Source of the DNA: an uncultured Colwellia sp.
GTDB lineage: Bacteria > Pseudomonadota > Gammaproteobacteria > Enterobacterales > Alteromonadaceae
Direction: 5' to 3'
Assembly (NCBI GenBank): GCA_913062815.1
Contig: CAJXWZ010000003.1
Coordinates: 39,919-103,918, forward strand
DNA: 64,000 bases
Positions 2,192 to 18,486 of this stretch are shown piece by piece. The notes beneath the pieces are model-generated. The model did no database searches, was not told the origin of the DNA, and saw only the letters and a program-made list of their open reading frames with translations. A program made the translations under genes and the position numbers. Positions within the stretch are counted from its first letter, which is position 1; the number at the start of each line of letters is the position of its first letter.

Positions 2192-3394
2192 TTAGTTTTT
2201 ATTTGAACAAGCACTTGCTAAAACATTTTCTATTACTGAGCACATTAGGGTTATTTCAGCTAGCGTCAGTGTCGGGTGCACCAAAAACATCAAGCTTGTT
2301 TCACCTAAAATCTTTGCTACAGGCAGCGGATTTTCTGGCCGAAAGTTGGTATTGTCAAAGGCTTTTTCTAAGTACACTTCAGAGCATGACCCTTGAAAAC
2401 ATGGTACGCCTAGAGCATTAACTTCATTGACAATACGGTCACGATCCCATGATTCACTGAGTCTATCTGTATTCACAAACGCATAATATTTATATTGAGC
2501 GTGTTCGATGTAATCAGGAATATTTACTAACCGGATACAAGAAAACTTAACTAAACTATTTTCGATTAATCGAGCATTATTGTTTCGTTTATCGAACCAA
2601 TCAGGCATTTTCGTTAATTGAATTCTACCGATAGCAGATTGCATCTCAGTTAAACGCCAGTTCGTACCAAAACTTTCGTGTAACCACCGAAAGCCTGGCG
2701 GGTGGCTTTTGTTATAGATAGCATCCCATGATTTGCCATGATCTTTGTAAGCCCACATCTTTTTCCAAAGCGATTCGTTGTTGGTTGTAACCATACCGCC
2801 TTCGCCACCTGTAGACATGATTTTATCCTGGCAAAACGACCAACAACCAATATCTCCAATAGCGCCTACTGCTTGCCCTTTATATTTTGTACCGTGAGCC
2901 TGAGCACAATCTTCAATAACCAATAGTTCATGAGCCTTAGCAAACGACATAATCTCATCCATTTCACAAGGCATTCCCGCTAAATGTACACAAATTATTC
3001 CTTTAGTATTTTCACTCAATACCGCTGAAATAGTAGCTGCGGTAATATTTTGGCTATTGAAATCAACATCAGCAAAGACTGGGGTAGCACCTGCAGTCAC
3101 AATAGAGCTTGCCGAAGCTAGAAAGGTTCTCGAAGTAACAATAACTTCATCAGAAGAACAGCCTCCATTTCTTGCTCCAATATTTAAGGCAACTAAGGCT
3201 AAATCTAATGCTAAAGTTCCATTAGCAACGGCAATAGCATGCTTAGAGTCAGAAAAGTGGGCAAACTCTTTTTCAAATTCACGGCCTTCTTGCCCGGTCC
3301 AATAATTGACTTTGTTCGATAAAAGTACACGCGAAGCCGCATTGGCTTCTTCTTCACTAAAGCTTGGCCAAGGTGAAAACTTTGTATTTAACAT
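2192..3394 (-). CDS. DegT/DnrJ PLP sugar aminotransferase (PglE/QhbB-like)
   Basis: 400 aa; IEDCAQAHG, SFCQDK(IMSTGGEGG) PLP lysine; N-terminus PWPSFSEEEA...SNKVNYWTG is typical of the QhbB-like subgroup. Confidence 0.92.
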   Translation of the reverse strand: MLNTKFSPWPSFSEEEANAASRVLLSNKVNYWTGQEGREFEKEFAHFSDSKHAIAVANGTLALDLALVALNIGARNGGCSSDEVIVTSRTFLASASSIVTAGATPVFADVDFNSQNITAATISAVLSENTKGIICVHLAGMPCEMDEIMSFAKAHELLVIEDCAQAHGTKYKGQAVGAIGDIGCWSFCQDKIMSTGGEGGMVTTNNESLWKKMWAYKDHGKSWDAIYNKSHPPGFRWLHESFGTNWRLTEMQSAIGRIQLTKMPDWFDKRNNNARLIENSLVKFSCIRLVNIPDYIEHAQYKYYAFVNTDRLSESWDRDRIVNEVNALGVPCFQGSCSEVYLEKAFDNTNFRPENPLPVAKILGETSLMFLVHPTLTLAEITLMCSVIENVLASACSNKN

Positions 3395-3412
3395 TTTACG
3401 GAAATCCTTAAG

Positions 3413-4030
3413 TTATTTTTTTATTAATGCTGGAGAGCCTACAGCAGTCACATTAGCGGGAATATTTTCTAACACCGTAGAGTTTGCGCCTATAATAGTA
3501 TTAGTGCCTATTTCAACACCTTGTTTGGTTACAGAGCCAATCCCCAGCCAACTGAAAGCGTTCACTTTAGTATTTCCGGCAAGGGCGACATTTGGACTAA
3601 GGTGAACAGCCTCTTCCAAAATACAATCATGCTCAACAACCGCAGCGGTATTAATAATGCAGTTTTGTGCAACTTTTGCAAAAGCATTGACTACCACATT
3701 TGCTAACACAGCACTGCCTGAAGCAATACTAGCATATTGACTAATCACGGCTGAAGGATGAATTAACACGGGCAAGGTAAAACCGTGCGCTTGAAGTTGA
3801 TTGGCAAGTTTAGCACGAATTGCATTATTACCAATGGCAACAAACACAGAAGGAAAGGCATCAGGTTGAGCAAATAAGTCGTCAAATGAGCCAAGTACTG
3901 CCCAGTGTTCTAAATGTGTTTTTTCTGGAAATGCATCATCAAAAAAAAAGACTTGATAACCACAAGCTTCAGCTAAATCAGCAATTACTTTACCATGGCC
4001 ACTGGCACCCACTACCGCGATCTTTTTCAT
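3413..4030 (-). CDS. Sugar N-acyltransferase, PglD/NeuD family (hexapeptide repeats)
   Basis: 205 aa; GASGHGKV, FVAIGNNAIR, LIHPSA, hexapeptide repeats, VGSPA C-terminus. Confidence 0.9.
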   Translation of the reverse strand: MKKIAVVGASGHGKVIADLAEACGYQVFFFDDAFPEKTHLEHWAVLGSFDDLFAQPDAFPSVFVAIGNNAIRAKLANQLQAHGFTLPVLIHPSAVISQYASIASGSAVLANVVVNAFAKVAQNCIINTAAVVEHDCILEEAVHLSPNVALAGNTKVNAFSWLGIGSVTKQGVEIGTNTIIGANSTVLENIPANVTAVGSPALIKK

Positions 4031-4137
4031 ACTTAATTAATTTCTTATACCGAGTGTTTAATAGCGCTTAAGTTATTTAAGACATTATATTTAAAGCTGT
4101 GATGGATTATATCAATTTAATCAACTAAATAACTAGC

Positions 4138-4167
4138 AAAAAAAAAGAGCACCTAAGTGCTCTTTTT
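4138..4167 (-). terminator. Intrinsic terminator after the putative S-layer gene (possibly bidirectional)
   Basis: Stem GAGCAC(4147-52)/GTGCTC(4157-62), 4-nt loop, flanked by A9 (U9 on the minus strand) and T5. Confidence 0.85.
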
Positions 4168-4213
4168 ATAATTAACGGTAATAGTTATTTCATAACTATA
4201 TTGTTAATTAAGC

Positions 4214-5956
4214 TTATTGCCATACACGGCTAGCTTTACAAGACTCAGTTACACCACCACCGTTTGCATCATTATTAGTAACAGTTGATGTACAAACTTC
4301 ATTGATGTTGTAAAGAACAGGTGCATCAGCACGTGAGTCTGGAGACTTGTTCTGTACCGCTAGGTGAACACTGTTTTGTGGAGCAACAACAGTAAACGTA
4401 ACACCAAAGTGGAAGTTTTCAGCCGCATCTAACGTGTTAGCTGTTTGCGCGTTGATTGCAGTAACAATATCAGAGCCTAAGAAAGCAGCTTGACCTTGTG
4501 AATCAACAGTACCTAAAGATACGTTAGTGAACTCAGTTCCAGTTGGAACAACTGACATACCAGTAGTTGCATTATAAACTACAACATCCATACGGATATC
4601 AGCAGCAGTACCTGTAGTAGACTCATTAGTAAATTTCATTACTGAAGTCCAACCAGCAGAGTTAATGCTATAAACGTAAGGAACTTTGGCTTGCATGCCG
4701 TTAATTCCCCATGTATGTGAAGTAGTATCAGCAACTACTGTAAACGAAGCAACGTCTACTGGTTCGCCATCTGATTGATCGGCATCAATAGTTAAAGTAG
4801 CTTTCCAATCACCTGTTGCTAGTACAGCAGGAGATGCAGCATTAACTGTTGTATTATCAGTAGTGTTTACAAAGATTTCTACATCGTTAGATACTAATAA
4901 GTCATCTGCAACCATGTTTGATGCTAAAGACCAGCTTGTATCTGTAGTTGAAGCAGTTAGGTCAGTAGCACCTAATTCTACGTCAGTTACACCTTGGTCG
5001 CCTTCAGTACGATCAATAGTTAATACGTAAGTATCAGTCGCATCATCAAGAACCCAAGTATATTCAGCTGTATTCGTTAAGATAGCTTTAGCTTCTGATT
5101 CAACAACAGAAGGAGTATCGCCACCAGCTTCAACAACAAAACCACCACGTGATAACGTAGCATTTTCAACATCAATGATAGAATCAGCAACAGTTGTGAA
5201 TGTGAATGATAAACCGTCTACTAACTCAACAGCATCTGCTACATTAGTTAAAGGTGCTGTTAAGTCATTTGATGAATCATCTTTTGCGCCAGTTACTTGA
5301 GCAGTAACGATAGTACCGTTAGCTGAACCGTCTGGAACGATAAAAGAAGGTAAATCAGTTGCAGCGAAAGTAGCAGCAGTAAACAATTGAATTAACGTAT
5401 CAGCAGGAACTGGGTCAGTATCAGCGCCAACTGTGTTTGCAGCACCGGCATCTGTACGAGTATAACTAGCGGCTGCTAAAGTATTACCAGTATCAACTAA
5501 GAATTTTAATTGTGAGTAGTAATTAGTAGCATCGCCAGATGCAACTTCTGTGAAATCAGAAAGTGTTGCAACTTGAACCCAAGCATCATTAGTTTCATCA
5601 TAGATTGCTAAGAACATAGTCGCATCAGGTACTAAACCACCATTAGCAAAATCTACGATTAGTGATGAACCTTGCGATAACGCAACAGCTGGAGTGTAAA
5701 CAACAGCACGGTCAGTTGCACCAACACCAGGGTTATTTGACACATCGTAATCAACAGCAGCTGAATCAGCAGCAAAAAAACGATATTCCGCATCAATTTT
5801 CTTACCCATTGCTGCAGTAGCAGTCAAATCAACATTTGCTGTTTCTGGAGAATCCGCATGATCTACAATTGCAAGTGATGAACTAGCAGCTATTGCACTA
5901 CCAGCTGTTAAACTACCTAAAACAGCTAGCGCTAGGATAGATTTATTAAGTTTCAT
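4214..5956 (-). CDS. Secreted acidic Ala/Thr/Asp/Val-rich protein, putative S-layer protein and T2SS substrate
   Basis: 580 aa; Sec signal MKLNKSILALAVLGSLTAGSAIA; few basic residues; C-terminal WGINGMQAKVPYV...VMKFTNES segment recalling Slr4-type S-layer proteins (from memory); codons skewed to GCT/ACT/GTA/GAT; AGGA SD; own promoter and terminator; directly after gspD. Confidence 0.7.
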   Translation of the reverse strand: MKLNKSILALAVLGSLTAGSAIAASSSLAIVDHADSPETANVDLTATAAMGKKIDAEYRFFAADSAAVDYDVSNNPGVGATDRAVVYTPAVALSQGSSLIVDFANGGLVPDATMFLAIYDETNDAWVQVATLSDFTEVASGDATNYYSQLKFLVDTGNTLAAASYTRTDAGAANTVGADTDPVPADTLIQLFTAATFAATDLPSFIVPDGSANGTIVTAQVTGAKDDSSNDLTAPLTNVADAVELVDGLSFTFTTVADSIIDVENATLSRGGFVVEAGGDTPSVVESEAKAILTNTAEYTWVLDDATDTYVLTIDRTEGDQGVTDVELGATDLTASTTDTSWSLASNMVADDLLVSNDVEIFVNTTDNTTVNAASPAVLATGDWKATLTIDADQSDGEPVDVASFTVVADTTSHTWGINGMQAKVPYVYSINSAGWTSVMKFTNESTTGTAADIRMDVVVYNATTGMSVVPTGTEFTNVSLGTVDSQGQAAFLGSDIVTAINAQTANTLDAAENFHFGVTFTVVAPQNSVHLAVQNKSPDSRADAPVLYNINEVCTSTVTNNDANGGGVTESCKASRVWQ

Positions 5957-6069
5957 TTTATTTCCTATATATTTAATTTATAAATTAATGAACATTTTAT
6001 TTTTGAGCAAAACCTTTGCCCTAGGTCTCGAGACAAGACAAAGGTTTCACACAGGTTCGTTCAAACAAG

Positions 6070-6098
6070 ATTTGAACAAAAAACAAATACCTTGTCAA
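6070..6098 (-). promoter_or_regulatory. Candidate sigma70 promoter of the S-layer gene
   Basis: TTGACA (6098-6093), 17-nt spacer ending TGT (extended -10), then TCAAAT (6075-6070); overlapped by inverted repeat GTTCAAA-N5-TTTGAAC (6059-6077). Confidence 0.5.
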
Positions 6099-6346
6099 CT
6101 CTTTAATATTATTCCGATATTTTTTATTCTTAGAGTGAATAATATTATCTAAATCATGCGAAACTTCAGTTTACAAGTTTCCTTACAATTTAACTAAAGA
6201 TAATAACGAAATATTACTGGACTGATTAAACCACTTAGATCAAAGGGAAACAAGTACTTAATGATAAAAAAACTATCTTCTGGCTGTTTTTTAGACTATA
6301 CAGCTTAATTTAGCGCAAAATACCATCACTTTATCTGTATTGATGG

Positions 6347-8416
6347 TTAATTAAATTGTATTTCTGTAGCGCTACCTGAATAATCTTTAATTAAATTATC
6401 AATATCATCACCATCACTGAGCACTTTAGGAGTAAGTAATATAATCAATTCTGAGCGGGTTTTATCTTCACTTTTACTCAAAAATAAATTCCCTATAAAA
6501 GGTAAATCTTTAAAAAAGGGTACGCCGCTATCATTGACACTTCTATCTTCTTGAATTAAACCGCCGAGTACAATTGTTTGACCACTACGCGCCAACACTG
6601 TTGTTGTAATGGTCCGGTCTGAAATAATAGGCGAGCTTATATCCGATAAATTATTCGCAAGCGCTGATGAGACCGTTTGTGCTACATTCAATGACACTAC
6701 ACCTTTGCCACTAATGGTTGGGGTAACACTGAGTGAAACACCCGTAGAGCTATATTGTACCGACTGAATTATCGTATCAGCATCGCCGTTAGAGTTAGAG
6801 CTTTGTTGGGTTAAAATAGGTACTTGTTGACCAACATTTAATGATGCCGACTCGCCATTTTTCACCACAATACGCGGGTTAGATAAAATGTTTACCCGAC
6901 TTTCAGTTTCTAGTAACTGTAAAACTACCGAGTAATCTACATTCGCTAGACTGAAGGTTAAGCCTTTGTCCATTGTTAGTTGTCTTTGAAAACCGGTATC
7001 ACCCAAATTGTTATTCAAAAACCACTCTATACCTTGCTGATATGAGTCACCTAATGTCACCGAGGCAATTGTGGCTTCAATAACTACTTGTTTAGGCACT
7101 ATATCCATCTGTCGAAGCAGAGGCAAAATTTCATGATATTTTGCTGGGGTAGTATAAAAAACCAAGGCATTTTGATGTGGAGAAATCATCATTGATAACT
7201 CTTCAGTGGCGACTCCTGAACTAGCTGAGCCAGCACTTGCCCCTTTTGTCTGATTGGATCTATTATTGGTAGACGACTGTGATGTAGATTTATTCGATGC
7301 AGGGGAGGTTTGACCATTTTGCAAAGCAATTAGATTGGCAATACTTTCTCCAATGTCCTCAACGTTCGCATTTTCAGGATTAAAGGTATAATAACGTTTT
7401 TTAGAGGTCGGAGACGGCTTATCTAGCACCTTAGTCCAGTAGGCAACTCGATTTAAAATAAGTTCATTAGCGCTGTGCACAATCACAGCATTGCGTTGTA
7501 ACAAAGCAGTAAAAGCTACTCGAGCATTTTTGTGCTCAACATCAATACCCTCTGCTAATAATAGTTCAGTAATTTGAGCAATGAAGTCTTCCACATTTAT
7601 ATAGGTAAACTCATGCAGCCCGATAAATTTATTTTTAACATCAGGTAGGTCAAAAGTATTAATAATCCTTAAAAACTGTCCTACTTCTTTAGCATTACCT
7701 ATTGCTAACACTGCATTGCGCTCGTTTATCCAGCGAGTACGAATATTAATTAACGAGCCTACCACTTGATTTAATGAATCCCAATCGGCATATAATATTG
7801 GCACTAGTTGCGCAATACGTTCATCTGAAGCTGTAGGAATATCACCCTGTTCTCTACCAATACCTAAGCTGAACTTTCCTTTACTACCACTTTGCTTATT
7901 TACAAAGAAAAACAACACTGAGTCACGAGAATCGAACTGAACTTTACTTTTAGCGAGTAACTCTGTAGAAAGCGAGTAAAGTTTTTGCTGGCTCACTTTT
8001 TCTTGCAAATTAAGCGTCATGGTTTCGTTAGTTAATTTTGAAATAGACTCGTCAAGTACATAACTCAAACCAAGATGTTCACCATAAACTAAATGAATAA
8101 AATCATTTAATTGCATCTCATTAATGGCTATTTGTATATCTTCATCTGCACTTAATTGGTTAAGTAGCTCATTACTTTTATTCTCAAATATTTTTGCTTG
8201 CTCTTCAGCTTTAATGCCTTCAAGTATCATGTATTTGTCAATAACATCATTCTCTTTAACTGCTTCAGATTGCGACTGTTTTTCTTGTTGTTCGCCATTA
8301 TTTTTTAGCACCGAATTAGGCACATTTAAAACGGACTCATCATGAGTAGCACAACTCGACAAGGCGAAAATTGAAATTAAAAAAAAGGATATTTTACTTA
8401 ACGGCATTGTTTTCAC
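6347..8416 (-). CDS. gspD: Type II secretion secretin, predicted lipoprotein
   Basis: 689 aa; lipobox ALSS-C; N0-N3 domains; secretin motifs QVVIEATIASV, ILSNPRIVVKNGESASLNVGQQVP, TIVLGGLI, VPFFKDLPFIGNLF, RSELIILLTP. Confidence 0.93.
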   Translation of the reverse strand: MKTMPLSKISFFLISIFALSSCATHDESVLNVPNSVLKNNGEQQEKQSQSEAVKENDVIDKYMILEGIKAEEQAKIFENKSNELLNQLSADEDIQIAINEMQLNDFIHLVYGEHLGLSYVLDESISKLTNETMTLNLQEKVSQQKLYSLSTELLAKSKVQFDSRDSVLFFFVNKQSGSKGKFSLGIGREQGDIPTASDERIAQLVPILYADWDSLNQVVGSLINIRTRWINERNAVLAIGNAKEVGQFLRIINTFDLPDVKNKFIGLHEFTYINVEDFIAQITELLLAEGIDVEHKNARVAFTALLQRNAVIVHSANELILNRVAYWTKVLDKPSPTSKKRYYTFNPENANVEDIGESIANLIALQNGQTSPASNKSTSQSSTNNRSNQTKGASAGSASSGVATEELSMMISPHQNALVFYTTPAKYHEILPLLRQMDIVPKQVVIEATIASVTLGDSYQQGIEWFLNNNLGDTGFQRQLTMDKGLTFSLANVDYSVVLQLLETESRVNILSNPRIVVKNGESASLNVGQQVPILTQQSSNSNGDADTIIQSVQYSSTGVSLSVTPTISGKGVVSLNVAQTVSSALANNLSDISSPIISDRTITTTVLARSGQTIVLGGLIQEDRSVNDSGVPFFKDLPFIGNLFLSKSEDKTRSELIILLTPKVLSDGDDIDNLIKDYSGSATEIQFN

Positions 8417-8882
8417 CTGAGTTGAATAAATTTAAGGTATATTTTTGTTCTTTTAGTTCTAGCTCAATAGCTCGAGCACTTATATCAATAATTTTAGCGC
8501 CTAAAACATCTTCACCTTTACTGGCATGATAGTAATGGCCAAAGCCTTCTACGGGGTTTTCTTGTTCCGCTTTGAACGTCGCATACAAAGTATTAGCTTT
8601 TAAACTGATGGCTAACAATCGAATTTTAGTTTGGTCGAAGGAGAGTGTGTCTGATGATAATAAGGCAGTATCTCCTTGTGCTTGATTAAACCCGCCTGAT
8701 TGCGTTGGGAAAATATCAGTCCTAAATTCTACTGCACTTATTTTTGTCGGGAGTGTCACTTTATTATCAAAGTCAACATTATTTTTTAGCTTACCATGAG
8801 CAAAGCTGATATCACTCAATCTCAACACAGTATCTACTATAAGGTAGGCTAGCAATAAAGCTATGATCACTAGCTTATTCAT
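8394..8882 (-). CDS. Bitopic membrane protein, divergent GspC/PilP-like
   Basis: 162 aa; N-terminal TM; C-terminal beta-rich IRLLAIS...KGEDVLGAKIIDISARAIEL resembles a GspC HR domain; located just before the secretin. Confidence 0.5.
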   Translation of the reverse strand: MNKLVIIALLLAYLIVDTVLRLSDISFAHGKLKNNVDFDNKVTLPTKISAVEFRTDIFPTQSGGFNQAQGDTALLSSDTLSFDQTKIRLLAISLKANTLYATFKAEQENPVEGFGHYYHASKGEDVLGAKIIDISARAIELELKEQKYTLNLFNSGENNAVK

Positions 8883-9454
8883 ATAGGCTTCCTTAATTGC
8901 ATCGTTGATATGATTAAGGTCAAATTATATTCATCAGACAAAGAGCCTCGTTTATTAATTCCGCTTAGTCTTAATGATTCTAAATGCCACAAGTTGTCAT
9001 TGTTACTAACCGACTGCAAAAATGATTGCATCAACACACCATTTCCAGAGACATGTATGGTAAGCATGTTTTTATTAAGTAAATCATTTACGAGTACATT
9101 GTCCCATTTGTGACTTACTATTTTTAATTCTTCACTTTCAGCAAGCTCAGTCAACAATTTTAATAATGCTATTTGTGCTAACTCGGTTTTTTCTGGTTTT
9201 AGTAACACCTGTTCAACACTACTAATTTCCGCTTTTAGCTGGCTGGTCAGAGCTAGCAAGTTATCTTGCGCTGCTTGTATTGACGCTGGAGATTTTATTT
9301 GCAAGGAGTTAATGGAGATTTTCTCTAGCCACTCTTCTTGAACGCTCAACAAAGGGAGCGCAATTAATTTTATAAAAAGCAAAAAAGACAGCAAATAAAT
9401 TGCGCCTTCATATTTTATAAAATCAGGGTGTTGTGTAATATTTTTAATATTCAT
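8879..9454 (-). CDS. Divergent GspM/PilO-like protein
   Basis: 191 aa; single TM, coiled coil, ferredoxin-like C-terminus; in the canonical M position. Confidence 0.5.
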   Translation of the reverse strand: MNIKNITQHPDFIKYEGAIYLLSFLLFIKLIALPLLSVQEEWLEKISINSLQIKSPASIQAAQDNLLALTSQLKAEISSVEQVLLKPEKTELAQIALLKLLTELAESEELKIVSHKWDNVLVNDLLNKNMLTIHVSGNGVLMQSFLQSVSNNDNLWHLESLRLSGINKRGSLSDEYNLTLIISTMQLRKPI

Positions 9455-9459
9455 AAAAA

Positions 9460-10518
9460 CTAATATTGGTAGGTTATGGTAAAGCGTTGTAAATTATTGA
9501 TGTTGATATCTGACACTTTATTGGCAAATCGAACATTTTTAATCATGTCTAGATTTATCATGTCTTCCAACACGGCTAAAGGTTCTTCACTTACCGCAGT
9601 AATGAACACTGAGTTGTCTCTGGTACTTATGCGCTCTAACGTGTAACTTTTAGTCGTTTGCGCTAACACTTCAAAAATAGAACCAATACCAACATTACCG
9701 TCAATCCCAACCGTTAACGCTGCATAAATATCTTGTTCACTTCTATAGGCAGTTCTTGTTTCTATAAAACCGGCTACTAACTCTGTATTGGTATGTGATT
9801 TATTTTGATAAAGTAAATCCAAGCCTTTAATTAAGGCGGTAGAAGCAAGTAAATAAAGAAACGTAGCAACAAAGGCGCTTTGTATAAAATTGCAATATCG
9901 ACAATTTACTTGGCCACTTTTTTCTGATGATAATTTAAAGCTTAACAAAGAAGGTAATGCTTTATATAAGCCTAATTTAAATAGACTCGTTTTTTCTTGA
10001 AAACTATCCACTGAAACCGTATTGTCTTTATCATTCAATAATGTAGTATTATTTTTTGATATCTTGAAACTTTGTTGAGCCGAATTATTACTGACCCAAT
10101 AATTACCATCATCAATGAAAGCCATTTGACCTAATGGCAAAGCTTTAAAAATCAGATAATTCTCAGGGAAAATAAAGAGTGCTTTTTTAAGCAGACCATT
10201 ATTCAACTTTTCTATCAAACTTTTTTTGTAAAACCAAAAGTGTGCTTCATAACCTTGCTCTACTTTTTTTAGATCATAAAAGAAGTCGGCGTCTTCAAAT
10301 GGACATAGCGAATTAGCGTCTAGCTGCAATGCTTTAATCACGTGTGATTTATTACTAATAGGATAAACTTTATCGGTTTCAAAAAAGTGAGCTTTTTTAA
10401 CAATAATGGCGACAACTTGCTCAAGTCCAGATCCAGAGAGCGACTCCATCTTGTTATCAGAAAAATACGCTATCTTTGAGAGTAGGTAGCTTTTAAGGTT
10501 GGCCTTTATTTTTTTCAT
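9460..10518 (-). CDS. Divergent GspL/PilN-like protein
   Basis: Likely start MKKIK at 10518 (track extends to 10548); large cytoplasmic domain, one TM (FVATFLYLLASTALI), periplasmic coiled coil; follows gspK. Confidence 0.5.
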   Translation of the reverse strand: MKKIKANLKSYLLSKIAYFSDNKMESLSGSGLEQVVAIIVKKAHFFETDKVYPISNKSHVIKALQLDANSLCPFEDADFFYDLKKVEQGYEAHFWFYKKSLIEKLNNGLLKKALFIFPENYLIFKALPLGQMAFIDDGNYWVSNNSAQQSFKISKNNTTLLNDKDNTVSVDSFQEKTSLFKLGLYKALPSLLSFKLSSEKSGQVNCRYCNFIQSAFVATFLYLLASTALIKGLDLLYQNKSHTNTELVAGFIETRTAYRSEQDIYAALTVGIDGNVGIGSIFEVLAQTTKSYTLERISTRDNSVFITAVSEEPLAVLEDMINLDMIKNVRFANKVSDININNLQRFTITYQY

Positions 10519-10522
10519 TAAT

Positions 10523-11428
10523 TCATGACTCCCAGTGCCAGATTTCATATGGGTAGGGACTGTCTAACGCAACTTTTGTTGAGAATACAACCTTTTTCAC
10601 CACTTTTACTTTATCTAACGAGATTGTAACTTCTAATTCAACTGTTTGTATTAATTTAGTTTCTGCGCTTTGCCTTGACAATAAGCTAGGTACTCTTGTT
10701 AAATTAATTAAAGTACCCTCTTCACCTCTTTGTTGTGCAATTGAAGAGGCTTGTTCAATACCATATAACCATTCTATCAATTGTTTAGGTGATAATCGAA
10801 CATTAAAATCCGCTAAGGTAAAAAGAGATAAGTGATCACGAATTTTAAGTAACCACTCTTGTTCAAAGCCATAAATTAGCGCGAGCTCATCAATTGATTG
10901 GATCTGGAAGTTTCTTGGCTTTAACAGGCCTAAACGGGTATAGCCATCTTCTTCTAGACCGTTTAAATTAACAAACCTGTCGGTATCTTGCCAGTCTTTC
11001 AAACGAGCAATGACTTGATCTACTTTAATGTTTCTAGTGTCTACACCATTTGTTATACCACGCAACAACAATTTAATCAGTGGAAAATCTGTGGGTATTA
11101 ACGATATTTTGCTCGCTTCATCTCTGACTGAAAGAGTAACACTTGGGCTTATTGTAAAAGGATTACCATACAGATTCCAACCAGGATACTTAGCCGTAAT
11201 AGCGCCATCAGCAATTTCACTTCGATGTTTAACAAAGTTAAAAATTGCTTGATTGAGTACCGATTCTGCCTTTAACTCAGCTTTAATCTTATTCTGCATT
11301 AACAGTTGAGATTTTATTATTTGCTGGCTGTACCAAACAAAGTAAGAAACAATCAACGCAATAATAAGGCTTGTCACTAACGAAATAATTAATGCCACAC
11401 CGCTTTGTTTACTATACGAAAGCATCAT
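10523..11428 (-). CDS. gspK: Minor pseudopilin GspK
   Basis: 301 aa; QSG|VALIISL cleavage site lacking Glu5; VRDEASKISL, LKDWQDTD, PRNFQIQSIDEL motifs. Confidence 0.85.
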   Translation of the reverse strand: MMLSYSKQSGVALIISLVTSLIIALIVSYFVWYSQQIIKSQLLMQNKIKAELKAESVLNQAIFNFVKHRSEIADGAITAKYPGWNLYGNPFTISPSVTLSVRDEASKISLIPTDFPLIKLLLRGITNGVDTRNIKVDQVIARLKDWQDTDRFVNLNGLEEDGYTRLGLLKPRNFQIQSIDELALIYGFEQEWLLKIRDHLSLFTLADFNVRLSPKQLIEWLYGIEQASSIAQQRGEEGTLINLTRVPSLLSRQSAETKLIQTVELEVTISLDKVKVVKKVVFSTKVALDSPYPYEIWHWES

Positions 11429-12129
11429 TAACCCTCAACATTATTATACAAGGTGTTAACTTTAATCGCTTTGCGACTGTTCAGGGTGAGCGGTAGAAAT
11501 ATCATTGAACGCCCAGTTATAGCATAATTTAGGCGAATAGCTTTAGGTAAACCTCTTTCTACCGTTGAATAAAAACCATCTTGATAATCATTTCTTATTT
11601 CTCGTAAAGAAATATCACTATTGAACGGCTTTCGATGTAAATAAGACAATGTGACTAATTCATCGATAGTAAGTATGATTTTTGAGATTTCTGTTTCGGG
11701 GACATCTGATAAATTACTGATATAGCTTTTAGTTAAAGGGGATTCCGATACTTGAATTTGTGTACTAGTGCCAATGTGAATTAAATTGAGCTGCACAATA
11801 ACATCAGCTTTAAAGCCAAACATTGAAAAATGAGAAATATAAGCCAGTTCATTTCCATTACCTTTTACATAAGGTACCATCATTTTACTTTGATATACGT
11901 CAGTTTCTACATAATAATCACTCATGGATTTAATTGATTTATTAAGTAAACTAACGGCTGAAAGCCGCTGATAACCTTCATCTTTATAATCTTTCGATTT
12001 AGAGACTGCTTGTAAATATACCGCAGTAGACATATAGGCTGAGGCAATCAAAGAAGAAAAAATAACCATGACAACCAATAGCTCAATAATGGTAAACCCT
12101 TTAGCGTTCTTGATATGATACGGCTGCAT
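11428..12129 (-). CDS. Minor pseudopilin, GspJ-like
   Basis: 233 aa; KG|FTIIELLVVM N-methylation site; shares base 11428 with gspK. Confidence 0.75.
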   Translation of the reverse strand: MQPYHIKNAKGFTIIELLVVMVIFSSLIASAYMSTAVYLQAVSKSKDYKDEGYQRLSAVSLLNKSIKSMSDYYVETDVYQSKMMVPYVKGNGNELAYISHFSMFGFKADVIVQLNLIHIGTSTQIQVSESPLTKSYISNLSDVPETEISKIILTIDELVTLSYLHRKPFNSDISLREIRNDYQDGFYSTVERGLPKAIRLNYAITGRSMIFLPLTLNSRKAIKVNTLYNNVEG

Positions 12130-12544
12130 CTTTGTCTACCATCACGCGACTATAAGAATGCGCCAACTCACTGCTTGCACCTGCAGTTGTTAGCACTAAT
12201 TGATAGTCTATTAAATAATATGTATTAGGCTTTTCTGAAAAGCTATTAATATCTGATTCAAAACTTCTTTCTCTGAAGTTATCTATAATTGTTCCTTCCC
12301 AATTAACCGTAACATCATTAAAAGAATAATTGCCTGCCAAGTTGGTAATATCGTCATTCAAATCAATTAAATTTTTTGCCTGCATTATGGCGATATATTT
12401 ATCGGCTGCCCCTTTTTGTTTAATAACTAATTTAGCGTATTGAGCATAGGCCACTTGGCTTAACGAGATAGCTGAAATCAAAATAACCGCTGCGATTAAT
12501 AATTCAATTAAGGTAAAACCTTGATTATGTTTTGCAGAGAACAT
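12101..12544 (-). CDS. Minor pseudopilin, GspI-like
   Basis: QG|FTLIELLIA site; likely start MFSAK at 12544 (track 12562). Confidence 0.72.
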   Translation of the reverse strand: MFSAKHNQGFTLIELLIAAVILISAISLSQVAYAQYAKLVIKQKGAADKYIAIMQAKNLIDLNDDITNLAGNYSFNDVTVNWEGTIIDNFRERSFESDINSFSEKPNTYYLIDYQLVLTTAGASSELAHSYSRVMVDKDAAVSYQER

Positions 12545-12938
12545 AACTCTCCTCGCAATCAATCAGTAACTGACTTGTTTTTGACGTGTTTTTTACTTTG
12601 AAATAAACAGGCGAAGGTATGACGAACCCGGTCGATGAAAAGTGAAGTTGTGCTGATGTAAATATAAGTTCGTCAAAAACTTCTGTCTTATATAACTGGT
12701 CTTCTAATAAAATATCAACTTCATTGGCAGCAAAAGCTAATGTGGCAGACTTTCCTGAAAAAAAGGTTAGTTTGGACACTTGTTTAACTAACGACTGCAA
12801 CTTTCTCTCTTCAATAAATCGTTTAGAACTCTGTAGTGACTTTGTTGCTCCTGGAGCAACAATAGCAACCAAGCCCGCTATCATGATCATAACGACAATT
12901 AATTCAATAAGAGAGAAACCTTGTTGCTTACCCATCAT
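12525..12938 (-). CDS. Minor pseudopilin, GspH-like
   Basis: 137 aa; QG|FSLIELIVVM; ATGA overlap with the gspF stop. Confidence 0.72.
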   Translation of the reverse strand: MMGKQQGFSLIELIVVMIMIAGLVAIVAPGATKSLQSSKRFIEERKLQSLVKQVSKLTFFSGKSATLAFAANEVDILLEDQLYKTEVFDELIFTSAQLHFSSTGFVIPSPVYFKVKNTSKTSQLLIDCEESYVLCKT

Positions 12939-14140
12939 AAAACATTAATATCCTGAACACTCATGATGCTCATGATCATACCGATAACGACACCGCCAAC
13001 AACACCACCCATAAACAAAATGAGAATAGGCTCTAATACCGTTGTTGCTGTTGCAATATATCTATCCATTTGAGCTTGACTTCTTTGGGCTATATTTTGA
13101 AATGATTTAGCTAATTTCCCTGTTTCTTCTCCTGTTTCTATATAACCGAGTTGAATATCATCAAAAAGCTTCACACCATCTAAGGCATCACACATTTTTA
13201 TGCCTTGCTTTATTTGGTTTGATGCACCGACAAGTGAATCTCTGAGCTTAGGCATTGTTACGGCAGAAACGGATAATTTTAGTGCTTGGCTCAGTGGAAT
13301 ACCTGAATTAAGTGTTATTTGTAATGACGTAGAAAATCGAATTCTATCAACCCCGCGAGTTAAATGAGAAACCCCTGGTAGCGAATAAAACTGGCGTTGA
13401 AAGGCATCACTGGTTTGCAGCAGATACCTTACTAGCATAACCCCTAACACTGGCGAGGCTATAATAAAACCAATAACAAATAGACCATATTTGTCCATAA
13501 AATTGGCTGTATTGAGTAAAAATACGGTATACCAAGGAAGTTCAGTTGCCTGTTCAAACAAAGGGGCTAACTGAGGCAAAACAAAATAAAAAATAAAAGT
13601 GATGGCTAATATACACACCATAAATATAACACTAGGATAAGCTAACGCTTGTTGAACTTTTTGTTTTAAGCTCATTCTAAACTGCATATCTTCAGATATT
13701 CGGCTTAATACGTCAGGTAATTGCCCTGATGCTTCACCTAGTTCAATAAGACTCAAATATAGGCGGTTGAACAATTTAGGGTAATTACTTGCTACTTCAA
13801 ATAATGACGAACCGCCCCTTATTTCTCCGCGCAGATTACTCAAAAACAATTTAGCTTGAGTTAAAACAATACCTTTTTCAGTAAGCTCAATTGCTTTGTC
13901 CAACTTAATGCCATTTTGCATTAGCTCAGCTAAATTAGAGAAAATTTCTTCCAGCACAGATAAAGGTATATTAATTGAATGACCCTGATGCTGTTTAGTG
14001 CTATCTAACTCGTTAATTTCTACAGCAATTAAGCCTTGTTTAGCTAGCTTGTGTTGTATTTCTTGTTTAGTCTGTGCAACTTCTTTTCGCTGAATTAATT
14101 CACCTGAGTTATTATAGGCTTTAACATCATAAGCTTTCAT
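12935..14140 (-). CDS. gspF: T2SS inner-membrane platform protein
   Basis: 401 aa; two GspF domains, GEASGQL and GEETGKL, ALAYPSVI, LEPILILFMG. Confidence 0.93.
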   Translation of the reverse strand: MKAYDVKAYNNSGELIQRKEVAQTKQEIQHKLAKQGLIAVEINELDSTKQHQGHSINIPLSVLEEIFSNLAELMQNGIKLDKAIELTEKGIVLTQAKLFLSNLRGEIRGGSSLFEVASNYPKLFNRLYLSLIELGEASGQLPDVLSRISEDMQFRMSLKQKVQQALAYPSVIFMVCILAITFIFYFVLPQLAPLFEQATELPWYTVFLLNTANFMDKYGLFVIGFIIASPVLGVMLVRYLLQTSDAFQRQFYSLPGVSHLTRGVDRIRFSTSLQITLNSGIPLSQALKLSVSAVTMPKLRDSLVGASNQIKQGIKMCDALDGVKLFDDIQLGYIETGEETGKLAKSFQNIAQRSQAQMDRYIATATTVLEPILILFMGGVVGGVVIGMIMSIMSVQDINVL

Positions 14141-15816
14141 TAACCCGCTACCCTAACGACTTCTTCTATACTGGTTAGCCCTTTAATTACTTTTAATAAA
14201 CCATCACTGTGCAAAGAACGGATATTATTTTGAGCCATCAACGCCCTTGCACTTAAAACGAATTCAGCGCCTTTGGGTAGCTTTTCAATGCTGTCATCAC
14301 AACGCAAGTATTCCACAATCGCTAAACGACCATAATAACCTGTATGATTACATTGCTTGCAACCCTTCCCTTTTTTTAATGATATTTTTGTATTATTAAA
14401 CTGTTGTGCTAATGCTTTTAAACCGAAATCAGCGACGATTTTTTCATCCTCATATTCATAAGCACACTCATTACAAATTTTCCTTACTAATCGTTGCGCT
14501 ACAATAGAGATAAGCGCTGCATTGAGTAAATATTCATCTAAGCCAAGATCAAGTAAGCGAGTATAAGCACTCGGCGCATCATTAGTATGTAAAGTACTAA
14601 ATACTAAATGCCCAGTTAATGCCGATTGCATACCTATTTGAGCTGTTTCGCTATCACGAATTTCACCCACCATGATTACATCAGGATCTTGACGAACAAT
14701 GCTTCGTAAACCTTTAGAGAAATCAAAACCTATATCATGATTAACTTGAATTTGGTTAATGCCTTCTAGCTGATATTCAACCGGATCTTCCAAAGTTATA
14801 ATTTTAATTTTGTCATCATTAAGCTGATTTAGAAAAGAATAAAGGGTCGTTGTTTTACCACTACCCGTTGGGCCTGTTAGTAAAATAACACCTGACGTGC
14901 GGGTTAAATCTTCTCTAATTAAATCGAGTAAATCGCTTTCAATGCCTGATTTTTCCAAATCATAATTTAAAGATTGTTTCATTAAAAAGCGCATTACAAC
15001 ACTCTCACCTTCGTTTAAAGGCAAGGTTGATAGCCTGATATCAAATTCTTGATTGGCAAGTTTAAATTCTATTTTTCCGTCTTGTGGTCTTCTTTTCTCA
15101 GCAATATCTAAGTTAGCCAGTATTTTCAAACGAGATATTATGGGGAGGAACAAACTCTTTGGCAGTAATTCTAATTCATTTAATACGCCATCAACACGGA
15201 TTCTTGCCCTGCAACCTTCACGGTAGGGCTCTATATGTAAATCTGAAGCCCCCATCTTAACTGAGCGCATAATTAAAGAGTCGACTAAACTTACAATAGG
15301 GGTTTCGCTAGCAAGTTCCTTTAACCTTTCAACATCAGTATCAAAGTCACTCATATACTCGTCAAAACCAATGGCTTTAACTTCTAATATTTTTGCTTCA
15401 GCATTTCGATAAGTGGTGGGGCTACAAATTAAATAAGAGGCTGTTACTCCTTCATATTCAAGATATTCGCCAATGTCATAATGATTAGTATTAGTAACAA
15501 GTATATTAATATGACTTCCTTCCCAGTGAATGGGGATTCCGCCTTTATCTTGAATAAACTGAATATTCAAAGGACAGTTTGTCAGTACCGCATTTAGCTT
15601 TTGATTAGAAATACTCTCGTCAAAGTTCTCAAAATCGACATAAGCACATGAAGATGATTTTGCTAAAACTACGGCAATATCTTCTTCTGATGCTAATCCT
15701 AAACTTGCTACAATAGCGTCAGAATCACCACCAAATTTCTGTTGGAATTGTATTACTTTTTGAACTTGGACTTCGGTAATTTTACCTTCTAACTTTAAGC
15801 TGTTTAAAAATTCCAT
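14140..15816 (-). CDS. gspE: T2SS assembly ATPase
   Basis: 558 aa; ASDLHIEP, Walker A GPTGSGKT, EDPVEY, RQDPDVIMVGEIRD, TGHLVFSTLHTND, CNEC/CKQC zinc motif. Confidence 0.95.
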   Translation of the reverse strand: MEFLNSLKLEGKITEVQVQKVIQFQQKFGGDSDAIVASLGLASEEDIAVVLAKSSSCAYVDFENFDESISNQKLNAVLTNCPLNIQFIQDKGGIPIHWEGSHINILVTNTNHYDIGEYLEYEGVTASYLICSPTTYRNAEAKILEVKAIGFDEYMSDFDTDVERLKELASETPIVSLVDSLIMRSVKMGASDLHIEPYREGCRARIRVDGVLNELELLPKSLFLPIISRLKILANLDIAEKRRPQDGKIEFKLANQEFDIRLSTLPLNEGESVVMRFLMKQSLNYDLEKSGIESDLLDLIREDLTRTSGVILLTGPTGSGKTTTLYSFLNQLNDDKIKIITLEDPVEYQLEGINQIQVNHDIGFDFSKGLRSIVRQDPDVIMVGEIRDSETAQIGMQSALTGHLVFSTLHTNDAPSAYTRLLDLGLDEYLLNAALISIVAQRLVRKICNECAYEYEDEKIVADFGLKALAQQFNNTKISLKKGKGCKQCNHTGYYGRLAIVEYLRCDDSIEKLPKGAEFVLSARALMAQNNIRSLHSDGLLKVIKGLTSIEEVVRVAG

Positions 15817-15819
15817 TAG

Positions 15820-16209
15820 TTAGAAAACCACATCATCGCCGCCGTCTTCAATTTTGCCATTTTTACCCTTTGAAAACATTTTATAGCTAACTTGTGACTC
15901 TTCAAGTTGATATAGGTAAGCATTATTCCAGGGATCTGAAGGTATTGCTTTAGGAAAATAAGGACCATCCCAGTTTTTATTACTAGACTCTCTTAGCTCA
16001 TCAAGATTTTCAGGGTATACGCCAACATCTAAGCGATAGGTGTCTAATGCGGTAGCAAATAGCTGCATTTGTGCTTCTGCTGTTTTAATCTTTGAACTAT
16101 CAACCTTACCAAACATTGCTGGGCCAATAAGTGAGGCGATTAAACCGATTATAACCATAGCAATCATTAACTCAATTAATGAAAAACCTTTTTGTGACTG
16201 CTTGCGCAT
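15820..16209 (-). CDS. gspG: Major pseudopilin
   Basis: 129 aa; KG|FSLIELMIAM, ALDTYRLDVGVYP, WDGPYF, DPWNNAY. Confidence 0.93.
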   Translation of the reverse strand: MRKQSQKGFSLIELMIAMVIIGLIASLIGPAMFGKVDSSKIKTAEAQMQLFATALDTYRLDVGVYPENLDELRESSNKNWDGPYFPKAIPSDPWNNAYLYQLEESQVSYKMFSKGKNGKIEDGGDDVVF

Positions 16210-16246
16210 TTACTTATACCTTTGATTAAATCTAAACTTCCGCGCT

Positions 16247-16275
16247 ACTATACACAAAAAAAGTACTGGTATAAA
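16247..16275 (-). promoter_or_regulatory. Candidate extended -10 promoter for the T2SS operon
   Basis: TGTG-TATAGT (16256-16247) followed by AGCGCGG; weak -35 TTTATA at 17 nt. Confidence 0.4.
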
Positions 16276-16635
16276 AGATCTAAACAAACAATTACATTTT
16301 TTTTATGGTTCTCGTTATTTCTGTATAGAAAAATTCAGTTTTTCGAAAGAAAAAACAGCTAAAATAGAGAAGGTGAAAGCCCTTTTTGTAAATTCTCATG
16401 TACCAATGACTGGTAGTTGTTTTGATAAAATAAATATTGCCCTCATCAAATTGGACAAAAGCTAACGTGCCATCAAGATTGAATAACAGTCAGTTTTCTA
16501 ATATTTCTGGTATGGTTTGAATTTCACTAACCACGGGGGAGACCATTTCATTCGCATCGAAAAACACTATTTATTAATCGCTTCCTTATACTGTAATCGA
16601 GTTAATTCCCTCCTCTGACGTTAACTCTGTTGTTA

Positions 16636-17229
16636 TTAACGATTAGTGCCAGTAAATTTTTGCATAGTAACATCACCTTCCGCTGAAATGCCTTCTTTAA
16701 TAAATACCTTCTTTACCGTTAACAATAGTATTTTAATATCTAGCCAGAAACTTTGATTATCAACATACCAGACGTCAAGTTTAAACTTATCCTCCCAACT
16801 GATAGCATTTCTCCCATTCACTTGTGCCCAACCAGTAATGCCGGGGCGAACATTGTGTCGCTTTGCTTGCTCGCTGTTATATAAAGGAAGATATTCTACT
16901 AATAAGGGGCGCGGGCCTACTAAGCTCATATCGCCTTTTAAAACACTCCATAACCCAGGCAATTCATCTAAACTTGAGCTACGTAATTTAGTACCAAAGG
17001 CAGTCAGCCTTTCTTCATCAGGTAGTGTTTTACCATCAGCATCTACCGCATCTCGCATACTGCGAAATTTACTCATTTCAAAAATAGCGCAATGTAAACC
17101 CGGTCGCTTTTGTTTAAATAAAACAGGCTTACCTAAGTTTTTAGCTATTTTACGACTTACTATAAACATGATTGGCGATAGCAATACTAACGCCATACTC
17201 GCCACTACGACGTCAAACAAGCGCTTCAT
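16636..17229 (-). CDS. Initiating phosphoglycosyltransferase, PglC/ItrA1 family
   Basis: 197 aa; MKRLFD, KFRSM, SLDELP, GDMSLVGPRPLL, PGITGWAQVNGRN. Confidence 0.93.
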   Translation of the reverse strand: MKRLFDVVVASMALVLLSPIMFIVSRKIAKNLGKPVLFKQKRPGLHCAIFEMSKFRSMRDAVDADGKTLPDEERLTAFGTKLRSSSLDELPGLWSVLKGDMSLVGPRPLLVEYLPLYNSEQAKRHNVRPGITGWAQVNGRNAISWEDKFKLDVWYVDNQSFWLDIKILLLTVKKVFIKEGISAEGDVTMQKFTGTNR

Positions 17230-18455
17230 TCGTGAACACCTGCTACCCAGTTAACCCACTTGTCGGCTAACTCTTTACGATCGAATTCTTTGCTAGCTAA
17301 ATCACTTGCTCTATTGCCCATGAGTTTTAACTCTGCTTTATCAGAAGCTGCTTTTTCTAGGGCATCAGCAAAGGCGATTGGATCATCTGGTGCTACTGTA
17401 AAACCACAACTATTCTCATTTATCATACCTTCTAACCAACCAGGATAATTATTAAGTACAGGTAAGCCTGCTGAGATATAGTCAAAAAACTTATTCGGTG
17501 AAGTGCCATAATAAAACGCAGGTATATTAGCGAGTAATTGTAACCCTAAATCTGCACTTGCCATTAAACCTGCCAGTTTCTCTTTGTTTACCGGCGGATG
17601 GAAAACCACATTACTAAGTGCTAACGCCTGTGCTTTAACTTGTAATTCATGCTTAAGTTTTCCTTGACCAACAAAGGCTAACTTAATGTCAGTTCTGCCT
17701 CGATTTTTTAATTCAAGTGCCGCATTTAATGCCGCATCTAAGCCATTAGCTTGCCCGTGGGTGCCAGTAAAGATCGCCATTAAATCAGAGTTGCTAACCC
17801 CTTCTGGCCGCCATTCATTGCTTTTTTCATCATGGGCTAATTGGAAAATATCTAAATCACAGCCATTTGGGACTAGCGCTATTTTCTCTGGTTTTACCCC
17901 TCGCTTCTCAATTCCCGCAACGATGCCAGGAGAAAGACCAACACACCTATGAGCGCTACGGTATGATAACCACTCTAGCATTGACATTAACCCTAAGACT
18001 ATTGGGTTTTTTATCACGCCCATTTGTTTGGGTAATTCAGGCCAAAGATCTCGCACTTCAAAGACAAAGGGCTTTCTGCGTAACCAACGAGCAAAAATAC
18101 CGGGAATACCCGCTGTTAATGGTGTGGTAGTTGCAAAAACCACATCGTATTGCTGTGTTAAGGCTAGTCCGATACTTTTCATGGCAAACTTGACAAAAGT
18201 AGATGCCCGCTTAATAAAACCATCAGTATTCGAATACGCTAAATCAAACTCAATAATATTAATCCCAGCTATCGAGCCTTCTCTTTTGCCATTTTTAAAT
18301 TCGTGTTCTAACCCGGTATCACCCCCACCGTAGCTTCCGCATACCATAGTCACTTGGTGACCGTGATGAACTAGACGGCGCGCCATTTCATAAGAGCGAA
18401 TGCCTGTAGCTCCCTTGGGTGTTGAAAAATGTTGGTGGAAATAAAGTACTTTCAT
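17226..18455 (-). CDS. GT4 glycosyltransferase (WbuB-like)
   Basis: 409 aa; GT-B fold, EVRDLWPE, SPNKFFDYISAGLPV. Confidence 0.88.
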   Translation of the reverse strand: MKVLYFHQHFSTPKGATGIRSYEMARRLVHHGHQVTMVCGSYGGGDTGLEHEFKNGKREGSIAGINIIEFDLAYSNTDGFIKRASTFVKFAMKSIGLALTQQYDVVFATTTPLTAGIPGIFARWLRRKPFVFEVRDLWPELPKQMGVIKNPIVLGLMSMLEWLSYRSAHRCVGLSPGIVAGIEKRGVKPEKIALVPNGCDLDIFQLAHDEKSNEWRPEGVSNSDLMAIFTGTHGQANGLDAALNAALELKNRGRTDIKLAFVGQGKLKHELQVKAQALALSNVVFHPPVNKEKLAGLMASADLGLQLLANIPAFYYGTSPNKFFDYISAGLPVLNNYPGWLEGMINENSCGFTVAPDDPIAFADALEKAASDKAELKLMGNRASDLASKEFDRKELADKWVNWVAGVHE

Positions 18456-18486
18456 TGATTAATTTCTTTTCAGTTTAATTTGATAA

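Follow-up and report, generated by a model that had tools for sequence, protein, structure and literature searches.

We analyzed a stretch of 64,000 nucleotides (nt) of DNA from an uncultured Colwellia sp. (GenBank assembly GCA_913062815.1, contig CAJXWZ010000003.1), and we call the whole of this stretch the window. On its minus strand the window carries a cluster of eleven genes of the type II secretion system (T2SS) type, followed by a gene for a protein of 580 amino acid residues. We think that the product of this gene is probably a very divergent member of the family of the surface-layer (S-layer) protein Slr4, exported by the T2SS that is encoded upstream of it.

Slr4 is the most abundant cell protein of Pseudoalteromonas tunicata and forms a square paracrystalline lattice of about 9 nm (PMC7821379). 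In that organism the slr4 gene lies after a T2SS operon, and this arrangement was read as a dedicated T2SS by Ali et al. 2020 (PMC7821379; see also PMC11094555). The initial annotation of the window had proposed a substrate-dedicated T2SS with a divergent S-layer or biofilm-matrix protein as its cargo, and had not known such a protein to be characterized in the lineage. That novelty was overstated, because this architecture is already known from a publication on marine Gammaproteobacteria, Colwellia and Thalassotalea among them (PMC7821379), and a Pfam family, PF19526, exists for the protein. It is largely right to regard the system of the window as a divergent member of this published module of Slr4 and a dedicated T2SS.

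Homology of the 580-residue protein to Slr4

The amino terminus of the 580-residue protein is MKLNKSILALAVLGSLTAGSAIA/ASS, that is, a signal peptide in which a Lys-containing n-region, a hydrophobic core and the residues A-I-A/A-S at positions 21-25 can be read directly. The mature product was computed to have 557 residues, a mass of 57.7 kDa and an isoelectric point (pI) of 4.05. Its most frequent residues are Ala (14%), Thr (13%), Val (11%) and Asp (10%), and its two Cys residues are both near the carboxyl terminus. The signal peptide, the pI and the composition agree with the Sec-exported, acidic protein rich in Ala, Thr, Asp and Val that had been described in the initial annotation.

A word-indexed search for similar proteins yielded just five relatives, of which the nearest named one was a protein of Aliiglaciecola sp. 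CAU 1673 with 42% identity, and a rerun of the protein search with a 45-sequence alignment did not go beyond the same six close relatives. When 1.84 billion cluster representatives were searched with a profile, 61 relatives emerged, most of them 450-740 residues long and 24 of them at E <= 1e-30. The Pfam model PF19526, "S-layer protein Slr4", whose gathering score is 25 bits, matched 25 of 45 of these profile relatives. Two of these relatives connect the 580-residue protein with the Pfam family directly. The protein P0009 scores 37.9 bits on PF19526 (model positions 3-367) and is aligned by BLASTP with residues 3-548 of the query at 1e-43 and 30% identity. The protein P0016 scores 50.4 bits, matches the query by BLASTP at 3e-31, and ends with the same R-x-W-Q motif.

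We linked the superfamily by BLASTP and split it at E <= 1e-20 into three clusters. Cluster A contains the query, cluster B is Slr4 proper, and the remaining one, cluster C, is small. The protein of locus L048, a member of cluster B, contains FVYGGAK, a tryptic peptide published for Slr4, and its carboxyl terminus is nearly identical to that of Slr4 in Figure S1 of the paper. When the profiles of clusters A and B were compared with hhalign, they matched with a probability of 99.7% (E 1.2e-25, 399 columns), and the controls with reversed alignments gave 0.1-0.2%. In this comparison, residues 80-548 of the query correspond to 143-574 in the Slr4-like protein, at a profile-level identity of about 17%. 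The motifs T-I-D-V-E...R..F and W-x-(I/L)-N-G-x-x-x-x-(V/I)-P-Y, a TN(E/G)S block and an AP-x-N/NVP block are common to the query and Slr4. The second of these contains the W-x-x-NG...VPY segment that had reminded the initial annotation of Slr4, and the likeness is therefore a true one. Taken together, the full-length BLASTP matches to members of the Pfam family and the hhalign result show that the 580-residue protein is homologous to Slr4 over most of its length, as the initial annotation had supposed.

The published Slr4 family already extends into cluster A, because a protein of Thalassotalea hakodatensis falls in this cluster and its 80%-identical relative belongs to Thalassotalea sp. PP2-459, which is among the Slr4 homologues listed in Table S3 of Ali et al. 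2020 (PMC7821379). The one named close relative of the query that was available before 2020, from Pseudoalteromonas ruthenica, is absent from that table (PMC7821379).

Gene order and the secretion system

The eleven T2SS-type open reading frames (ORFs) occupy positions 16209-6347 of the minus strand and are all co-oriented. Between neighboring ORFs there is either an overlap of 1-38 nt or a space of 3-5 nt, and a gap of 390 nt follows the secretin gene before the ORF of the 580-residue protein begins. The features of the locus are listed in Table 1.

Table 1. Features assigned to the S-layer and secretion locus, with positions in the window.
Feature	Positions	Strand	Evidence
gspG-type major pseudopilin, 129 residues, first gene of the operon	15820..16209	-	TIGR01710 104 bits (cut-off 88.85), PF08334, N_methyl
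gspE-type secretion ATPase, 558 residues	14140..15816	-	PF00437 408 bits; 49% identical to its counterpart in L095, an Slr4-like locus
gspF-type inner-membrane platform protein, 401 residues	12935..14140	-	PF00482 127 bits, two repeats
Minor pseudopilin in GspH position, 137 residues	12525..12938	-	N_methyl motif; weak TIGR01708, E 1.9e-4
Minor pseudopilin in GspI position, 153 residues, start codon uncertain	12101..12562	-	N_methyl motif; orthologues at the same position in L095-L097
GspJ-like minor pseudopilin, 233 residues	11428..12129	-	N_methyl motif; weak TIGR01711, E 4e-5
GspK-like minor pseudopilin, 301 residues	10523..11428	-	PF21687 (GspK first domain) 32 bits (cut-off 26.2); NF037980 46 bits, below cut-off 130
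Protein in GspL / PilM-N position, 362 residues	9460..10548	-	Identity by position only; orthologues of 355-379 residues at the same place in L095-L097
PilO/GspM-like assembly-platform protein, 191 residues	8879..9454	-	PF04350 22.6 bits (cut-off 22); weak GspM_XpsM
Bitopic protein in GspC / PilP position, directly before the secretin, 162 residues	8394..8882	-	Identity by position only; one N-terminal hydrophobic helix
GspD-type secretin, 689 residues	6347..8416	-	PF00263 159 bits; TIGR02517 288 bits, below equivalog cut-off 351
Conserved promoter-like element TTGACA-17 nt-(TG)n-TCAAAT, function inferred	6070..6098	-	Invariant in the window, L085, L086 and L087
Stable hairpin in the predicted 5' leader (about 105 nt) of the S-layer mRNA	6004..6053	-	RNA fold -24.5 kcal/mol, z = -3.97
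Acidic divergent Slr4-family protein, 580 residues, predicted to be Sec-exported, putative S-layer subunit	4214..5956	-	Signal, homology, codon usage
Intrinsic terminator 3' of the 580-residue gene, 11-bp stem and T run	4142..4167	-	Strong terminator hairpin
Product sizes of the operon in the window (residues)			129-558-401-137-153-233-301-362-191-162-689
Product sizes of the operon in L095 (residues)			139-549-400-142-153-229-291-379-200-199-690

Scans with hidden Markov models (HMMs) found the core T2SS parts GspD, GspE, GspF and GspG, all within the cluster. Thus the ORF list and the HMM scans bear out the initial annotation, in which eleven co-oriented and often overlapping T2SS genes had been placed upstream of the 580-residue gene. 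The order of names given there, G-E-F-H-I-J-K-L-M-C-D, stands in part. The names G, E, F, K and D are backed by HMM matches, but L and C have no support from sequence; the names H, I and J of the three N_methyl ORFs rest on order and size, and the signals for H and J are weak. From the score of its secretin, which is under the TIGR02517 equivalog cut-off, the cluster is a divergent T2SS.

No prepilin peptidase of the A24 type (gspO/pilD) was found within the cluster, as had been noted at first. The genome has a single A24 peptidase gene, which adjoins pilB on another contig (C22), and the T2SS of the cluster may borrow this single PilD. The initial annotation had also raised the question of a housekeeping gsp operon elsewhere in the genome. 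Such an operon, the classical gspCDEFGHIJKLMN, is present on contig C45, apart from the cluster. All of its products from GspC to GspL exceed the NCBIfam equivalog cut-offs, and M and N were placed by size and position only. Because this housekeeping operon exists, the cluster of the window is not the general T2SS but a further, divergent one. In total the genome has four secretins and four full-size ATPases of the GspE/PilB type, plus a smaller PilT/PilU pair.

With the secretin of the cluster as the anchor, our survey covered 200 genomes from the GTDB family of the window. Full-length relatives of the secretin (30-46% identity, > 300 bits) occurred in 76 of the 200 genomes. We examined 39 of these secretin loci, together with one lower-scoring locus, for ORFs in the 4.5 kb downstream of the secretin. 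An ORF of the Slr4 superfamily was located just downstream of the secretin in 37 of the 39 loci, and in 29 of 29 loci the secretin was preceded by an ORF of about 190 residues and another of 148-205 residues. L095, L096 (Aliiglaciecola) and L097 (a third genome) each have an Slr4-like gene, whose product in L095 scores 321.8 bits on PF19526, and upstream of it the 11 genes of the window's operon, unchanged in order and similar in size. This gene-for-gene synteny with an Slr4-like operon, together with the separate housekeeping gsp genes, supports the idea of a substrate-dedicated T2SS that had been put forward at first.

In a search of metagenome contigs with a 9-sequence alignment, six contigs with cluster-A genes had an ORF of about 690 residues directly upstream. 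A search of genome contigs with the secretin gave one locus, in a metagenome-assembled genome of Colwellia sp., and this contig ends 464 nt past the secretin, so that it holds no downstream gene.

Several loci of the survey showed additional genes. Tandem Slr4-type genes follow the secretin in L082 (genome G084; 3169-4527 and 4935-6293, a pair that scores identically) and in L055 (2265-3830 and 4011-5708), and these may be paralogous or phase-variable S-layer genes. In L097 (genome G181) an ORF of 1883 residues at 14286-19937 stands directly after the Slr4-type gene.

Predicted expression, predicted fold and alternative explanations

In order to estimate expression, we applied an unsupervised principal component analysis of codon usage to the 3018 ORFs of at least 200 residues in this genome and checked it with named housekeeping genes. 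This method was used in place of the classical codon adaptation index because no ribosomal-protein reference set could be built: ribosomal protein L4 had no match in the genome assembly (70 contigs, 94% complete), and the match to domain 3 of EF-Tu (PF03143) sits at a contig edge adjoining an unrelated gene. The 580-residue gene was the 4th of the 3018 ORFs on the main codon-usage axis (99.9th percentile). Its neighbors on the axis were IlvC, AtpA, PNPase, DnaK, IF-2, LysS, SdhA, RpsB and GlyA, and GroEL was at the 99.3rd percentile. The T2SS genes of the cluster were at the 56th-64th percentile of the same axis. The codon usage thus predicts very high expression of the 580-residue gene. In the same analysis, a gene for a TonB-dependent receptor at 56585-59206 (-) of the window ranked 1st of the 3018 ORFs in codon bias, above AtpA and DnaK.

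The region upstream of the 580-residue gene is strongly conserved. Over about 160 nt ahead of the ATG, the sequence hardly varies among four loci (the window and L085-L087), in which the proteins are only 66-81% identical, and this upstream stretch, including positions 5957-6100, is better conserved among the four loci than the coding sequence. It contains the promoter-like element of Table 1, that is, TTGACA at 6098-6093, the 17-nt spacer, and TG-n-TCAAAT (6075-6070). A second conserved block was found about 230 nt upstream of the ATG. The near-invariant element and the conserved stretch in four loci support a separate promoter for the 580-residue gene. A scan for the sigma-70 consensus gave promoter-like matches no commoner than expected by chance, and the conserved TTGACA element was not among them. 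A Shine-Dalgarno sequence, AGGAA, is present 7 nt ahead of the ATG. Of the promoter, Shine-Dalgarno sequence and terminator that had been ascribed to this gene at first, the latter two were seen, and the promoter is backed by conservation but not by the sigma-70 scan. Long structured leaders are typical for S-layer mRNAs, and the predicted leader of this gene, for which transcription is predicted to start near 6063, includes a stable hairpin (Table 1).

We then considered the predicted fold. A first AlphaFold model, made from 6 sequences, was unusable, with a mean predicted local distance difference test (pLDDT) value of 47.8. The model from a 12-sequence alignment, with a predicted template-modeling score (pTM) of 0.53, was an all-beta chain of tandem sandwich domains. 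When it was compared with the Protein Data Bank (PDB) by Foldseek, the best matches were the Bap B-domain, FnBPA, Gram-positive pilins and other adhesins, that is, tandem immunoglobulin-like surface proteins; the list also holds two S-layer proteins, SbsC and a protein of Nitrosopumilus maritimus. The modeled fold agrees with a structural surface protein, and a lattice is not proven by it. The initial annotation had named an enzyme or adhesin fold as the outcome that would speak against an S-layer protein: no enzyme fold was found among the confident Foldseek matches in the PDB, although the best matches, which are weak, do include adhesins.

The 580-residue gene sits within a polysaccharide biosynthesis locus, and its product could in principle be a secreted enzyme, for example a polysaccharide-modifying one, that serves this locus. 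We think this extremely unlikely. The protein has no match in Pfam or NCBIfam, and so none to a catalytic family, and a sequence search against PDB chains found nothing. In addition to the absence of an enzyme-like fold among confident matches, the relatives of the protein are members of the Pfam family of Slr4.

The adhesin matches raise another explanation, in which the protein would be a non-crystalline component of the biofilm matrix or an adhesin, built of tandem immunoglobulin-like domains and exported by the T2SS, and would form no regular S-layer. Slr4 itself is a major shed component of the biofilm matrix, and the branch of the query is far from the characterized Slr4, as the profile-level identity of 17% indicates. 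The fold matches, however, are generic to strings of beta-sandwich domains and include the S-layer proteins mentioned above, the homology covers nearly all of Slr4 including its most conserved, C-terminal domain, and the extreme codon bias suits a coat protein needed in stoichiometric amounts. We therefore consider this explanation unlikely, and think that a divergent Slr4-type S-layer subunit is the probable identity of the protein.

Several results weigh against an Slr4-type subunit with its own T2SS. PF19526 misses the 580-residue protein even at E = 10, and its closest kin, P0007 and P0010, are also unmatched by this model. The HMM of the Slr4-proper subfamily found nothing in this genome, the query and the Slr4-like protein gave no pairwise BLAST match, and direct BLASTP to the Thalassotalea member reached only E = 0.002. 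Because these methods miss the query or barely reach it, its membership in the Slr4 family rests on intermediate sequences and on the comparison of profiles. The confidence of the AlphaFold model is only moderate (pLDDT 63.7), and the TM-scores of the Foldseek matches are <= 0.2. In the secretion cluster, equivalents of GspL and GspC are not identifiable by sequence: the 362- and 162-residue ORFs have no Pfam or NCBIfam match even at E = 10, and in hhalign neither these two nor the 191-residue ORF showed similarity to the GspC, L, M or N of the genome. Lastly, the link between secretin and Slr4 is not universal. Two loci from the genus of the query, L080 (genome G127) and L081 (genome G191), have a secretin with 32-36% identity and no Slr4-like gene within 4.5 kb downstream of it. 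The S-layer gene may have been lost or replaced there, or it may be elsewhere. Of the ORFs after the secretin in these two loci, one begins like an acyltransferase and the other resembles a membrane protein.

These two genomes also favor the idea that the cluster is a second T2SS of general purpose, with several substrates, and that the gene downstream is a mere neighbor and not its dedicated cargo. The conserved promoter-like element of the S-layer gene and its distance of 390 nt from the secretin gene point in the same direction. Against this, the secretin adjoins an Slr4-type gene in almost all of the loci examined, and does so across subfamilies that have diverged past recognition by BLAST. 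The genome, moreover, already has a complete housekeeping T2SS, and a dedicated T2SS was also inferred in the literature (PMC7821379, PMC11094555). We judge a general-purpose system to be very unlikely, and return to the dedicated T2SS in the following section.

Proposed export, glycan genes and meaning for the Slr4 family

If the protein is an Slr4-type subunit with a dedicated T2SS, its export could be pictured as follows. The pre-protein would cross the inner membrane via Sec, the signal peptide of 23 residues would be removed, and the protein would adopt its fold, a string of beta-sandwich domains, in the periplasm. The T2SS encoded upstream would then drive it across the outer membrane, using the pseudopilins G, H, I, J and K, the ATPase E, the platform protein F, the L/M-type and C/PilP-type partners, the secretin D and the shared PilD, and ordinary exoproteins would be left to the housekeeping gspC-N operon on the other contig. 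The acidic subunit of 57.7 kDa would assemble into a lattice on the outer membrane, where a surface glycan produced by the neighboring bacillosamine-type genes would probably hold it, and, like Slr4, it might also be released into the biofilm matrix. With its own strong promoter and structured 5' leader, the S-layer gene would be expressed far above the secretion genes.

The glycan genes are located on both sides of the cassette. On one side, bacillosamine-type genes span 16636-18455 and include a PglC-like sugar transferase gene (16636-17229) and a gene for a glycosyltransferase of family 4 (GT4); on the other side, PglD-, DegT- and PglF-like genes lie at 4030-191. Flanking glycan genes were noted in the window, L085-L088, L096 and L097. 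Of 19 cluster-A loci, 11 have such genes next to the cassette, a count made on short flanks and including several loci that are close relatives, and the gene orders differ. The S-layer of Aeromonas is anchored to the O-antigen, and RsaA of Caulobacter crescentus, which is abundant, is anchored to the O-antigen of the lipopolysaccharide. By analogy with these two systems, it is reasonable to infer that the putative subunit may be anchored to the glycan of its locus.

A further idea is that the branch with the R-x-W-x-Q tail is a structurally distinct type of S-layer, whose cassette is placed specifically in bacillosamine-type glycan loci (beside a PglC-like gene in three loci) and whose subunit is anchored to, or O-glycosylated with, a di-N-acetylbacillosamine glycan. 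We regard this idea as unlikely. If it were true, glycan and S-layer would form a coupled module, and the lattice might differ from the square lattice of Slr4.

The likeness to Slr4 of P. tunicata D2 (EAR28894) extends to many characters. Both proteins have a Sec-type signal cleaved near residue 23 (at 23-24 in Slr4; PMC7821379) and an acidic mature form of about 57 kDa, and both genes come directly after a G-E-F-pseudopilins-K-...-D operon that corresponds gene for gene. Both hosts are marine bacteria of the Alteromonadaceae type, and both proteins appear abundant, as measured for Slr4 and as predicted from codon usage here. Unlike Slr4, which ends with ...DRIHLGT..., the protein of the window ends with a Cys...Cys loop and R-V-W-Q, and its cassette lies within a glycan locus of the bacillosamine type. 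The beta-sandwich domains predicted here by AlphaFold also differ from the RsaA-like beta-helix that threading suggested for Slr4 in 2020 (PMC7821379).

The arrangement also resembles that of VapA of Aeromonas salmonicida and AhsA of A. hydrophila (with spsD and apsE), in which a subunit with a Sec signal is accompanied by a specialized, adjacent T2SS that exports the S-layer protein in addition to a general T2SS (PMC7821379). Our PDB sequence and fold searches, which were made without reference sequences of VapA and AhsA, gave no match to these proteins. With RsaA of C. crescentus, the putative subunit shares an acidic character and a gene beside its own exporter. In contrast, RsaA has no signal peptide, carries repeats-in-toxin (RTX) motifs, and is exported by an ATP-binding cassette (ABC) transporter of the type I secretion system (T1SS), whereas the protein of the window has a Sec signal and a T2SS as its neighbor. 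We rejected an S-layer protein of the RsaA type exported by a T1SS, since the signal peptide is present, the neighboring genes are T2SS and glycan genes, and the Pfam scan gave no RTX (HemolysinCabind) match in the protein.

The points that are new in the present analysis are limited to three: the branch lies outside the Pfam model and is unannotated, it has a distinct carboxyl-terminal tail, and it is tightly linked to bacillosamine-type glycan loci. The locus also offers a natural example of a cell with two T2SSs, one of them general and the other apparently devoted to a single cargo whose abundance is predicted to be very high. Such a locus would be useful for studies of the substrate specificity of T2SSs, the concept itself having been published already. 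For the Slr4 family, the results mean an extension to a branch that is missed by the current annotation models, so that the 580-residue protein and its kin are labeled "hypothetical". Because this branch has no Pfam match, S-layers in marine bacteria like Colwellia and Aliiglaciecola, and on many marine metagenome contigs, would go unrecognized. The bridging sequences, that is, the 25 of 45 relatives that match both the query and PF19526, could be used to broaden the Pfam model.

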